This document shows, piece by piece, positions 27,320 to 59,518 of a stretch of 64,000 nucleotides of DNA. The DNA is taken from NCBI RefSeq assembly GCF_045037415.1, contig NZ_CP173438.1; one strand, 5' to 3'. Position 1 is the first letter of the stretch; the number at the start of each line of letters is the position of its first letter. The DNA is from Escherichia coli (GTDB taxonomy: Bacteria > Pseudomonadota > Gammaproteobacteria > Enterobacterales > Enterobacteriaceae). A model generated the notes under the pieces. The model was given only the letters and a program-made list of their open reading frames with translations. It had not been told where the DNA came from and did no database searches. The position numbers and the translations under genes are program-made.

Positions 27320-28817
27320 TACCATTTAACTGAAAGCCACCATAACGTCTTTTTGACTACATTTATGATAATGCGTCTCATTTTGTTTTCGTTTTTTTGT
27401 TCAGGGAAATTTTCCGAACATCAGTGATAATGAGGGTTTTGTTGTTTTTGCTTCTGCAATGTTTGAGGACTGTTCCTGGAGACGATTCGTTGCTTGTGAG
27501 CAAGAGGTGGTCCGCTTTACTGGACAAGTTTTGCATTTGTTGAGTGGTGAAATGGAAGTAAAAAGAGCCCCTTTCTGGCAATGGTTGAAAAAGTCAGTAG
27601 CGTGTGACAGTAAAAGCTAACATAAAGTGATTATCGTATGATTATGACAATGACTTATAACTTTTATGAAAAGAACAACAGAAACTACGAAGCCATAGCA
27701 GATTCCTGAGACCATGTTTTCTGAGGTAGAGAAAATAATTCCAGAGTAAATCTGTTCTGTTTTTAGGACAGAAAACTCCATGTTGGCTGTAAAAGTGAAA
27801 AATTAACACCCAGTATGTATGGAAGTCTGAAGATGTTGAGAATGTCGGTATGATACTATATACACATATTTTACTAAGTATTTTTACTAAGCATTTCAGT
27901 AAGTGTTATACACGTATTTTCATAAACACTTGTAGAAGTGTTTTCGTTAAGCATTGCTATACACATCCAGTTTAGTAAATCTTTACGTTAACTAAATCAG
28001 TTTAATGCTGCTGTAAAACCTTTCTGCTTCAGCAATCAATCTGCTATTCGATTTTACTGATGTTACGTTTAACCTTTCCTGAGATTTCGAGTTTTGAAGT
28101 TAGCATGAGAAAAGTATCTTTACGCTAAATCAACCCGAACTTTCCTGAAGTAATCTGACGTTCTTTTCGATGTGCTTACGACGATTCTGTTAAACGACTT
28201 TCTGGATGTTTTGATAACAATCAGATTGAGGCATTAACGATTCCTGACGTTTTCTTTTCCGTGTAAGGTCATTCTTTTTGTCATGAGGTTTCTTCTTGCA
28301 TTGCGAAAGTGTGATGAACGGTTTTGATATTTTGATTCAGATGAGGTTTACGTTATCGCAGTTAATCGTTTTTATGGTGTGTTGAAAAGTAACGTTTTCA
28401 GGATAAGAAAATCGATTCTGATATTGGTAGTTTTTGTTCTTGTGGTGGGGTTATCTGTAAACAGGTTTTAAGCGCGCTATTCGGCTCTGTGATCGAGTTG
28501 TGTGGTTAAGCTGTAGGTTTGGTGTTGTTGTTGATTTGCATTGCCAGGAAGCGTTCTGGTTGTGTTTCTGGTGTTTTGTTCGAATGTTCAGTGGATCCTT
28601 TCCCTTCTGACTTTTCTCGTCGTCCATGTCGTTTTTAAATCCATTCATGCCGTTGTTTTACGTTTTACTACCGTGTGCAGGATTATCTTTTCGCTGCGGG
28701 ATGGTTTGTTCCGTTCAATCAGGAGCCATTGGTGTTGCTCAATGGTGAAATACCGTAAAGTTTTACCGCGGTGATGAATGATGTGAAGTCAATCCAAATC
28801 AACGGAGATCTCTCATC

Positions 28818-29549
28818 ATGAATCAATCAATACACAATGCTTACTGGTTATCCCGCTTTGAAAGTATTCTCAACAGTGCCCTGGCGCAACACCGTGCCGT
28901 CTCGTTAATCCGGGTGGATTTACGTTTCCCTGAGTATATGCCTGTCACCATCATGGATCCCGATCCGGATTCAGCGGTGATTTCTCGTTTTTTCGAATCC
29001 CTGAAAGCCAAAATCCAGGCTTACCAGCGGAAAAAACGGCGTGCCAACAAGCGTGTGCGCGCAACCACTCTGCGTTATTTCTGGTGTCGGGAGTTTGGCA
29101 AGGAAAAAGGCAGGAAACATTATCACGTGATATTACTGCTCAACAAAGATACTTGGTGTTCACTCGGGGATTTCAGCGAACCGTCTTCGCTGGCGACGAT
29201 GATCCAACAGGCATGGTGCAGCGCTCTGCATCTTGAGTCCTGGCAAGGCGATGGCCTGGTCCATTTTTCCAGGAGGACGCCTTTCCGTAAACCAACATCG
29301 TCTGATGCTCGCCCTTCTTCCGATGATACGCCTGTGCCTGGTGGATGTTCTGAAACCAGGAAGGTTTCAGACAAAAAGTCTGGTGAAGCCGCTGTTCTCT
29401 GGATCAAGCGTGGTGATGTGGAAGCGATGCAGAAAGCCCGGAACAGAGCCAGTTATCTCGTGAAAAATGAAACGAAGTTGCATGATGGTTCAGGTCAACG
29501 TAATTATGGTTGCAGTCGTGGGCCGGGGCGTCTACTGGATGGCAGGTGA
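28818..29549 (+). CDS. YagK/YfjJ-family (inovirus Gp2-like) protein, 243 aa
   Basis: Resembles YfjJ/YagK paralogs (LIRVDLRFPE..., KHYHVILLLN); SD ggag 10 nt upstream. Confidence 0.7.
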   Translation: MNQSIHNAYWLSRFESILNSALAQHRAVSLIRVDLRFPEYMPVTIMDPDPDSAVISRFFESLKAKIQAYQRKKRRANKRVRATTLRYFWCREFGKEKGRKHYHVILLLNKDTWCSLGDFSEPSSLATMIQQAWCSALHLESWQGDGLVHFSRRTPFRKPTSSDARPSSDDTPVPGGCSETRKVSDKKSGEAAVLWIKRGDVEAMQKARNRASYLVKNETKLHDGSGQRNYGCSRGPGRLLDGR

Positions 29550-58594: not shown

Positions 58595-58762
58595 TTACCT
58601 CTTAAACCATTCCTTACCATTTTCATGTCTTCGATAAGAAATCTTCATCATGCATGATCGATTTTGTCGATCGATTCGATCGAATTTTCTCTTTTTACCC
58701 TGTCTTTTGCATGGTTTTAAAATAAGCAACCTTCTTTATCGTGTGGGTAAGAACCAACGGAG

Positions 58763-59518
58763 ATGATTGAAATGAAAAAGGTTATTGCTGTTTCAGCGCT
58801 TGCTATGGCGGGCGTATTTTCAGCCCAGGCTCTGGCTGATGAGAACAAAACTGGCTTTTATGTGACTGGTAAAGCCGGTGCTTCAGTTGTGGCTCAGACT
58901 GACCAGCGCTTCCGTCAGGACTTGGGGGAGGATGTTTATAAGTATAAGGGCGGCGATAAGAACGATACTGTATTTGGTGAAGGCCTTGCGGTGGGCTATG
59001 ATTTTTATCAACATTACAATGTTCCTGTGCGCACGGAAGTGGAATTCTATGGCCGCGGAGCTGCGGACTCCCATTATACACTGGATACATGGCATTCTCC
59101 GATGGGGAATGGTGGTCGGGAAGACACACAGAACAGGCTCAGTGTGAATACCCTGATGGTGAACACGTATTATGATTTCAGAAACAGCAGTGCATTCACT
59201 CCATGGGTATCTGTTGGCCTAGGTTATGCACGAGTACATCATAAGGCGACATATACTGATACCTCCAGGAATGAATCTGGCGAGATAAGTGATATTTCTG
59301 AGTTACATTACTCGGGATATGATAACAATTTCGCATGGAGCATTGGGGCCGGTGTTCGCTATGACGTAACCCCGGATATCGCTCTTGACCTCAGCTATCG
59401 CTATCTGGATGCTGGTAAATCCTCCCTGTCTTACAAGGATGCAGAAGAGGATAAATATAAATCAGAAGTTGACGTTAAAAGTCACGACATCATGTTTGGT
59501 GTGACTTATAACTTCTGA
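58763..59518 (+). CDS. outer-membrane beta-barrel protein with signal peptide (about 248-251 aa)
   Basis: Signal peptide KKVIAVSALAMAGVFSAQALA, alternating-hydrophobic strands and C-terminal ...GVTYNF typical of OM beta-barrels; ATG 58772 with SD ggag is an alternative start. Confidence 0.7.
   Translation: MIEMKKVIAVSALAMAGVFSAQALADENKTGFYVTGKAGASVVAQTDQRFRQDLGEDVYKYKGGDKNDTVFGEGLAVGYDFYQHYNVPVRTEVEFYGRGAADSHYTLDTWHSPMGNGGREDTQNRLSVNTLMVNTYYDFRNSSAFTPWVSVGLGYARVHHKATYTDTSRNESGEISDISELHYSGYDNNFAWSIGAGVRYDVTPDIALDLSYRYLDAGKSSLSYKDAEEDKYKSEVDVKSHDIMFGVTYNF

Follow-up and report, generated by a model that had tools for sequence, protein, structure and literature searches.

A conserved leader with a putative Shine-Dalgarno-masking helix ahead of inovirus Gp2-type (YagK/YfjJ) genes of enterobacterial islands, and its two diverged copies in an Escherichia coli genomic island

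Operator hairpins that sequester the Shine-Dalgarno (SD) sequence form a general class in the leaders of bacterial and phage genes, with which the standby model of de Smit and van Duin is associated; in a number of plasmids, on the other hand, the rep genes are coupled to the translation of a leader peptide, as in tap/repA of IncFII and in repB/repA and repY/repZ of IncB and IncI-alpha. The subject of the present work is a short conserved element which in many enterobacteria stands directly upstream of genes of the YagK/YfjJ family (inovirus Gp2, PF11726), and of which two look-alike sites are found in a 64,000-nt stretch of Escherichia coli DNA (contig NZ_CP173438.1 of assembly GCF_045037415.1; hereafter the window). 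The window is an E. coli genomic island, and both sites lie on its + strand, site A in the region 28755-28822 and site B in the region 35817-35879 (window coordinates throughout). The reading of A and B as diverged copies of one cis-acting translational leader, masking the SD and carrying a short upstream open reading frame (uORF), is the one we favour as rather likely.

The canonical form of the leader, found in genera other than Escherichia, resembles the SD-sequestering operators in that a helix of 7-9 bp holds the SD at normal spacing, with a U-rich, single-stranded tract 5' of the helix, and in that the complementarity of the two arms is kept by compensatory and G-U changes; unlike those operators, the Gp2 leader has a loop in which a start codon and the surrounding sequence are conserved, and it is not represented in Rfam (no match at the gathering threshold over the whole window, and noise only, E ~3-5, around A, B and the leader of Kosakonia). 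Its likeness to the plasmid rep leaders consists in a short open reading frame (ORF) ahead of a replication-initiator-type gene, whose start is overlapped, in A, by the stop of the uORF (ATGA), and in the expectation that translation of such a uORF would open the structure masking the rep SD. The differences are that in the Gp2 loci no antisense RNA gene, promoter, terminator or pseudoknot emerged from the scans (the minus strand shows an A-run, not a U-run, after the hairpin, and no antisense promoter or terminator is predicted at A, at B or at the non-E. coli locus L009), that the frame, length and stop position of the uORF vary between lineages, and that Gp2 resides on integrative islands and is an initiator of the HUH type, not of the iteron type. 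A similar gene arrangement has been described in a 2025 paper on islands of Pseudomonas integrated at tmRNA (PMC12595487), whose 3' end is occupied by genes for an inovirus Gp2-like protein and AlpA; together with RadC and helix-turn-helix (HTH) genes, these are presented there as core functions of the island. Compared by description, these islands have the same Gp2-AlpA pair, and the paper mentions no leader element. A link to the Pseudomonas AlpA antiterminator was considered and discarded, that protein being much larger than the AlpA of 68-80 amino acids (aa) found here and the element that it binds, GGGACG, being unrelated. Full-text literature searches returned nothing on the regulation of yfjJ or yagK. 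The mechanism proposed below, in which a short uORF accompanies SD sequestration, is familiar as such; this example of it is undescribed.

The initial annotation of the window had pointed to a motif of 45 nt seen twice, at 28764-28810 and at 35826-35867, and both segments are found at these positions. A local blastn comparison of the DNA surrounding A (1.7 kb) with that surrounding B (2.3 kb) indicates that the similarity is real and the shared block slightly longer, of about 65 nt (28755-28822 against 35817-35879; 50 of 68 bases identical, one gap of 5 nt, E = 8e-8), with no further similarity between the two surroundings; the block reaches across the start-codon position, where A reads ATG and B reads CTG. 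Within the window, the degenerate 25-mer TTACCGCNNTGATNAATGATGTGAA matches at 28763 and 35825 only (none expected, from 100 shuffles), and the 12-mer TCAACGGAGATC at 28799 and 35856 only. More than an SD hexamer is therefore shared, as is evident from the extent and isolation of this match and from the covarying helix and the recurrence across genera described in the following paragraphs.

Conservation of the motif in other genomes, by which the initial annotation had proposed that it be judged, is extensive. In complete E. coli genomes, A-like sequences occupy about 2,500 places in 1,873 of 5,426 genomes (about a third), and B-like sequences are present in nearly the same number, so that both appear to belong to one island family; the segment 28300-29600 of the window, used as a query of 1,301 nt, is 100% identical to E. 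coli strain 219 and to several other human isolates. Across genera, a protein-based scan with one genome per species, lookups of single homologs and a pattern scan of metagenomes place the leader immediately ahead of Gp2 homologs of 189 aa that share only 36-44% identity with the protein of the window, in at least 15 non-E. coli lineages. These include Tatumella, Kosakonia, Rosenbergiella, Hafnia, Superficieibacter, Tenebrionibacter, Siccibacter, Entomohabitans, Pectobacterium, Brenneria, Rouxiella, Serratia and Providencia; the leader is present as well on Klebsiella IncFIB/HI1B plasmids and in a contig of E. coli O111 (OR844780), the loci with the leader upstream of Gp2 being L007-L015, L017, L056-L061, L063, L064, L076 and L077. 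The N-terminus of Gp2 follows in 19 of the 23 metagenomic matches; the pattern scan of viral contigs gave no match, and the sole 'phage' record that contains the gene is an unverified contig of 4.5 kb. The leader is not general to YagK/YfjJ genes: the upstream regions of K-12 yfjJ and yagK are devoid of the motif, a covariance model trained on non-E. coli leaders only (model R1) has no match in the loci L003 and L004, and Gp2 homologs below ~38% identity (L016, L018-L032) are without it. Its original description as a leader of the YagK/YfjJ family holds, then, for one subset of these genes, in many genera.

In the islands that carry it, the leader has a constant place: a long operon that runs leftward (GTPase or WYL, DUF932, antirestriction, RadC, CbtA/CbeA) is followed by a gap of 280-1,130 bp and then by the rightward series leader-Gp2-AlpA, with AlpA directly after Gp2 in all other genera examined; no second copy of the leader occurs within +/-9 kb in any non-E. 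coli locus. The YagK/YfjJ genes are located at the regulatory end of islands that form a very common class in enterobacteria, and the module is also carried by large Klebsiella plasmids.

Three parts can be recognised in the leader of these other genera, namely a U-run followed by TAC, a stem of 7-9 bp, and a loop of ~20 nt with the conserved start codon, the consensus being AAGTATTTTTTTAC-NN-(5' arm)-RAT-GNTATGAAC-N-ATAA-(3' arm = ..CCGGAG)-N7-10-ATG. The 3' arm of the stem is the SD of Gp2 and the 5' arm an anti-SD that differs by lineage, the pairs of arms being CTCCGGTG/CACCGGAG, CTCCAGT/ACTGGAG, CTTCAGTA/TACTGGAG, CCTTTGG/CCAGAGG, CTCTGACT/AGTCAGAG, CTCCAT/ATGGAG, CTTCTAT/ATAGGAG and, in a shifted register, TCCGTAT/ATACGGA; in all 15 of 15 non-E. 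coli representatives, the helix covers the GGAG or GAGG located 7-10 nt before the start. The covariation of the arms was evaluated on a plain MAFFT alignment of 24 distinct sequences, not fitted to the structure, over a helix of 8 bp. Paired bases fill 75.4% of the helix cells, against 32-37% when the partner columns are slid by 1-3, and the covariation score is 0.264 against 0.08-0.18 in these slid controls; the observed values were reached by none of 500 shuffles, double changes are seen at six of the eight pairs, and a model-fitted alignment leads to a similar outcome. RNAalifold recovers the SD-containing helix in the interval -70..+45, where it finds no other helices and no pseudoknot with the coding region. 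In seven cells a U of the 5' arm stands opposite a G of the SD, and wobbles of this polarity fit the sense strand. An inner helix of the loop (GGUUAU/AUAACC, of the Hafnia type) was also considered and rejected: its register is not common to the lineages and it was not recovered by alifold. The covarying leader offers a testable handle on the control of Gp2 and is a candidate for a new cis-regulatory family of the Rfam type.

The start codon of the loop, ATG or GTG in the context (A/G)TGAAC, is present in all lineages but one and lies mostly exactly 30 nt before the main ATG. Its relation to the main frame varies: it is in frame and open in nine lineages, in frame with a stop in two, out of frame in six and absent in one, all E. 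coli copies having it out of frame; in the codons that separate it from the main ATG, each of the three positions is variable, and the peptide is not conserved. The retention of start codon and spacing, and not of frame and codons, argues against plain coding sequence or a simple N-terminal extension; at the level of sequence comparison, the pattern argues for a role in initiation itself, as a uORF or alternative start, or for the loop as a recognition site. The uORF stops 5-9 nt before the main start in L010 and L063, and at site A its TGA (28821) overlaps the ATG (28818); in the remaining lineages, the loop ORF is in frame or stops 18-34 nt upstream of the main start.

Site A and the gene that it precedes comprise the following features:

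28751-28823, + strand: site A, leader of the Gp2/YagK_YfjJ gene (match to covariance model R1; blastn against site B)
28761-28766, + strand: TTTTAC, remnant of the U-run and TAC that delimit the leader on its 5' side in other genera (TTTTTTTAC), from alignments
28767-28776, + strand: CGCGGTGATG, counterpart of the 5' arm (anti-SD) of other genera, shortened and variable in E. coli
28777-28817, + strand: invariant core AATGATGTGAAGTCAATCCAAATCAACGGAGATCTCTCATC, with the conserved loop start codon and the SD (nine E. coli islands)
28783-28821, + strand: upstream ORF read from the sequence, GTG followed by 11 codons and TGA (VKSIQINGDLSS), the stop overlapping the Gp2 start as ATGA
28804-28807, + strand: Shine-Dalgarno GGAG, 10 nt before ATG 28818
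28818-29549, + strand: Gp2/YagK_YfjJ (HUH Rep-like) gene, 243 aa (Pfam; RefSeq 'inovirus Gp2 family protein')

The leader is placed directly ahead of ATG 28818, in agreement with the initial annotation, ending at the SD, after which the ATG follows. The protein encoded there matches Pfam YagK_YfjJ_C (2e-38) and REP_ORF2-G2P (1e-7), and the family alignment shows HUH-type motifs (HYH, YLxK). Site A is the best match of model R1 outside the training set (27.2 bits, E = 0.1-0.23), and site B (18.7 bits) and an ortholog of B (23.1 bits) come next; A at 27 bits and B at 19-23 bits are the top matches outside that set, with E-values that are weak (0.1-8). When nine diverse E. coli islands are compared, the core 28777-28817 has a mean pairwise identity of 99.5%, with one variable column of 41 against six of 24 in 28753-28776; the first 30 coding bases, with four variable columns of 30, are less conserved than the core, and the DNA at -160..-66 relative to the ATG is 65-76% identical. 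With respect to the non-E. coli leaders, A carries an insertion of 5 nt, and B aligns to them without that insertion.

The GTG at 28783 corresponds, in alignments, to the (A/G)TG conserved in the loops of other genera and was preferred as the start of the uORF over the ATG at 28774, from which 15 codons could be read; that ATG is replaced by ATT in most E. coli copies, and the longer uORF was rejected on this ground. As far as it can be read from the sequence, the ATGA overlap in A is the classic geometry for coupling by termination and reinitiation. A minimal start-stop string, ATG-ATG-TGA, overlaps the conserved GTG in both E. coli copies (28778-28786 and 35840-35848) and is absent from the leaders of other genera; it could act as a ribosome trap.

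In E. coli, the SD and start codon of A are covered by a predicted pairing that differs from the ancestral stem: in the minimum free energy structure, UCC 28793-28795 pairs with the SD and AUGAUG 28778-28783 with CAUCAU 28814-28819. The two folding energies obtained for A are -20.3 kcal/mol (z = -2.7) and -24.6 kcal/mol (z = -2.3), with four of 200 shuffles as stable in each case. RNA structure prediction, which the initial annotation had suggested as a check, finds the SD-containing helix in the other genera and this fold at A (z = -2.3 to -2.7), and nothing significant at B.

Site B is surrounded by a different set of genes:

35813-35880, + strand: site B, second and diverged copy of the leader (blastn against A; model R1; alignment to non-E. 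coli leaders)
35838-35873, + strand: conserved core of B, including GTG 35845-35847 and GGAG 35861-35864 (eight islands)
35809-35864, + strand: possible fold of B, CTCCGT (35809-35814) with ACGGAG (35859-35864) around a hairpin (minimum free energy)
35209-35775, + strand: second YagK/YfjJ-type gene, 188 aa, upstream of B (RefSeq 'inovirus-type Gp2 protein')
36022-36597, + strand: hypothetical gene of 191 aa downstream of B, in which HYH is replaced by EYH (hhalign)
36666-36899, + strand: AlpA-like HTH gene, 77 aa (RefSeq HTH regulator; weak match to an excisionase domain)

The core of B has a mean pairwise identity of 93% in eight islands, against 64-69% in the flanking non-coding DNA. Where A has its ATG, B has CTG (35875-35877), replaced by CTT in some copies, and the site lies 50 nt 3' of the stop of the 188-aa gene and 155 nt upstream of ATG 36022. 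The GGAG of B cannot be the ribosome-binding site (RBS) of the 191-aa gene, since the next start codon is 155-190 nt away and CTG or CTT stands in the place of ATG. Among islands, both the upstream gene and the downstream spacer of B occur in two alternative forms, and B stays with the 191-aa gene regardless of either, that is, with the 188-aa or the 243-aa Gp2 gene upstream (the latter is directly upstream of B in some islands) and with either spacer allele. The fold listed above, which encloses the hairpin CGGTAA-AACC-TTACCG (35815-35830), is the minimum-energy form in three B orthologs and is not significant (z = -0.1 to -1.05); one C-to-U variant within it retains a G-U pair. A long uORF starting from the GTG of B was rejected, a C-to-T change (GTGAACTGA) destroying it in half of the B copies.

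The initial annotation had named the gene after B a second YfjJ-like gene. This is plausible at the profile level: hhalign aligns the 191-aa protein with Gp2 at 61% probability (E = 8e-5, 108 colinear columns), the columns including an RVDLRFP-like motif and an HYHV-like motif that reads EYHV in the 191-aa protein. The protein has no Pfam or NCBIfam match, and the clear YagK/YfjJ gene of this region is the one upstream of B; the protein encoded by this latter gene is 17% identical to the 243-aa protein, and no such leader is found in its own upstream sequence. In database searches, the 191-aa protein is restricted to E. coli, and its AlphaFold model is too poor for use (pLDDT 48). The 191-aa gene is followed by an AlpA-type gene, the order that is seen after Gp2 in other genera, and fused database variants carry PF05930. 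Its alignment and gene order suggest that the 191-aa gene is probably a degenerate paralog of Gp2.

The mechanism that would account for these observations is the following. In the canonical leader, the helix would hide the SD, so that the Rep-like protein would be translated at a low level; initiation at the loop start codon, or a factor able to open the helix, would unmask the main ORF or couple its translation, and the U-run might act as a single-stranded standby or binding site. In the E. coli lineage, the 5' arm would have been shortened and the ancestral stem have degenerated, with A refolding through UCC:SD and AUGAUG:start-region pairings and with its uORF of 12 codons, started by GTG and overlapping the Gp2 start, serving for coupling by reinitiation. 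Site B would be the leader of a tandemly duplicated and degenerate Gp2 paralog (the 191-aa gene), displaced and deprived of its adjacent start, and still conserved, as proposed because of the hhalign result and the common order leader-gene-AlpA; the host elements would be a family of enterobacterial integrative islands, found also on plasmids. The common translational or RNA-level control of both genes that was first suggested is accordingly to be divided: it is the best reading for A, whereas at B the GGAG is not the RBS of the next gene. Conservation, position, covariation and the geometry of the uORF are direct observations, and the formation of the structure in the mRNA, its repression of translation and the part played by the loop start codon are inferred.

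Several observations weigh against the SD-masking leader. Scans for promoters and terminators at A, B and L009 gave nothing usable and no promoter was predicted, which leaves the presence of the 5' arm in the mRNA an assumption. The thermodynamic tests are weak, as T-rich shuffles pair with GGAG too: when the T-rich upstream sequence is shuffled, the SD is still predicted to be paired 40-80% of the time, and the P values for helix length in single sequences are mostly 0.03-0.7; moreover, the sense and antisense strands fold about equally well in terms of energy. The deep lineages are few, which makes the number of independent compensatory events modest, and relatedness can inflate the statistics of the shuffles. 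Within E. coli, the ancestral stem has degenerated, and the invariant core of A offers no covariation by which its alternative fold could be judged. Finally, B is conserved with no start codon in reach and no significant fold, so that SD masking pure and simple is insufficient as an explanation, and the strong conservation of the loop, beyond that of the stem alone, suggests on comparative grounds that it may be recognised by something.

Some of these features would be expected of an element acting at the DNA level, such as a rolling-circle origin, a nick site or an operator, used by the HUH Rep-like protein or by some other factor of the island, A and B being two such sites. This arrangement is exemplified by the intergenic origin of Ff, which lies upstream of gene II, and by hairpin origins in small rolling-circle replicons, and the Gp2 locus is like the Ff origin in having an inverted repeat with a conserved loop right upstream of a Gp2/Rep-like gene and, in E. 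coli, a second copy. The downstream gene encodes HUH-type motifs (HYH...YxxK) with the YagK_YfjJ_C and REP_ORF2-G2P domains, the loop is better conserved than the stem, the hairpin folds equally on either strand, B keeps its core with no adjacent start codon, and in some islands the 243-aa gene lies between A and B, which form direct repeats on its two sides; the loop strings CTTGAT, TTGATAT and TTAATGATGTG may bear a loose resemblance to the nick regions of phiX174/pC194 and of Ff. Unlike in HUH origins, however, the SD makes up the 3' arm in every case, at a constant spacing of 7-10 nt to the start codon, and the sequence of the 5' arm shifts with it so that the two remain complementary; nothing in a nick site or operator would require it to follow the SD. 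Moreover, pairs of the G-U type occur in the sense orientation only, the leader is present as a single copy per island outside E. coli (an origin-terminus pair is thus not general), B is accounted for by the tandem paralog, and many E. coli Gp2 copies are frameshifted, yet the leader is invariant. On balance, a DNA-level site appears unlikely, and its most specific form, in which the hairpin, instead of or in addition to being an mRNA operator, is the single-strand origin or nick site of Gp2, the islands and their plasmid copies replicate or mobilise a segment by rolling-circle initiation at the leader, and A and B, on either side of the rep gene, could serve for initiation and termination in E. 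coli, is very unlikely.

The conservation of loop and U-run beyond the needs of the stem, and that of B with its start codon lost, could also be due to a regulator acting in trans (an antisense or small RNA, a protein of the ProQ/FinO family, or Hfq on the U-run), for which the loop would be the recognition element, an idea that extends the SD-masking leader and does not replace it. Hairpin-loop recognition of this type is known from FinP/traJ and CopA/repA, the parallel with plasmid rep leaders is well established, and a gene of the ProQ/FinO family is found in the window 2 kb downstream; this gene (37718-38062, - strand, 2 kb downstream of B) encodes an RNA-binding protein that could act on structured leaders. 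Against this, no complement of at least 12 nt is found elsewhere in the loci, and none is consistent between them, an antisense promoter or terminator is not predicted at A, B or L009, FinO/ProQ genes are absent from the gene lists of those non-E. coli islands that were inspected, and there is no Rfam match; we regard a trans-acting partner as quite unlikely.

It could further be argued that A and B are functionless remnants of a duplication, conserved merely through recent spread and mosaic recombination of modules: E. coli has only a degenerate form of the ancestral stem, frameshifts affect many Gp2 genes, B is without a significant fold, and the flanks combine alternative modules in mosaic fashion, so that the difference between flank and core looks larger than it is. 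Yet A and B are only 74% alike, while each is nearly invariant across islands whose proteins differ by 8-16%; the core of A, at one variable column of 41, is more conserved than the first 30 coding bases, at four of 30, and its fold has a z of -2.7. This explanation is, in our estimate, likewise quite improbable. Least probable is that the conserved stretch is true 5' coding sequence, started at the upstream ATG or GTG and with the 'SD' as Pro-Glu codons: the loop start is 27-30 nt upstream, in frame and open in nine lineages, and ORF prediction extends upstream in Kosakonia, but in eight lineages, every E. coli copy among them, the loop start is out of frame or runs into a stop, substitutions affect each position of the codons in between and leave no conserved peptide, the conservation reaches upstream of the loop start into the U-run and 5' arm, and the 30-nt spacing is retained despite an intervening stop in L058 and L063.

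The SD-masking leader of Gp2 appears to have a counterpart further along the operon. The alpA gene of the non-E. coli islands (L008-L011, L014, L056-L064; e.g. L011 9556-9710 and L009 9571-9667) has a conserved leader of its own, the 5' end of which is a terminator-like GC-rich hairpin followed by TA(A/T)TTTTTTAC; the string GTAnTTTTTTACnG heads the Gp2 leader too. Farther on comes CCTCTGAGG, to which the sequence CCTCAGAGG, ~55-70 nt further 3' and joined to the alpA SD (GAGGGAG-N7-ATG), is exactly complementary; a small uORF lies between the two. From its sequence, the alpA leader appears to be a second, long-range design for SD masking in the same operon. The similarity of design suggests that the whole Gp2-AlpA switch may be held down at translation, and this switch probably governs the excision or replication of the island.

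As to the Gp2 protein of E. coli, the 243-aa form differs from its 189-aa homologs in other genera by a Pro- and Ser-rich insertion of ~45 aa, and among its variants in the database many are truncated or, through a frameshift, 214 aa long; in E. coli the protein may thus be in decay behind a leader that remains invariant. Upstream of both Gp2-type genes of the window, stretches of 0.8-1.5 kb (27320-28750 and 34400-35200) are without annotated genes, and at each of them the border between variable DNA and conserved leader is sharp. The 188-aa type of gene, although very divergent, accompanies the module and is also present on Klebsiella plasmids (L077, 8151-8717), where it comes after AlpA and two zinc-ribbon genes and has no such leader.

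A third occurrence of the core, CAACGGAGAT at 58755-58764, had also been reported. The exact 10-mer is present there (0.14 expected per window) and, as described, forms the RBS region of a gene for an outer-membrane-type protein of 251 aa (58763-59518), unrelated to the leader; its flanks have no similarity to the leader sites. Being a lone 10-mer at an unrelated gene, it was treated as a chance match and not as a leader copy. The 251-aa protein has a signal peptide and a beta-barrel-like sequence, and could start at ATG 58763 or at ATG 58772 (MKKVIAV...). Lastly, two records in public assemblies, a contig of 683 bp labelled Paenibacillus (L017, NZ_WACP01000054.1) and a metagenome-assembled genome labelled Bacillota (L006), contain an enterobacterial leader and Gp2, the leader of the former being of the type found in the E. 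coli O111 contig OR844780; both are probably cases of contamination or mis-binning.

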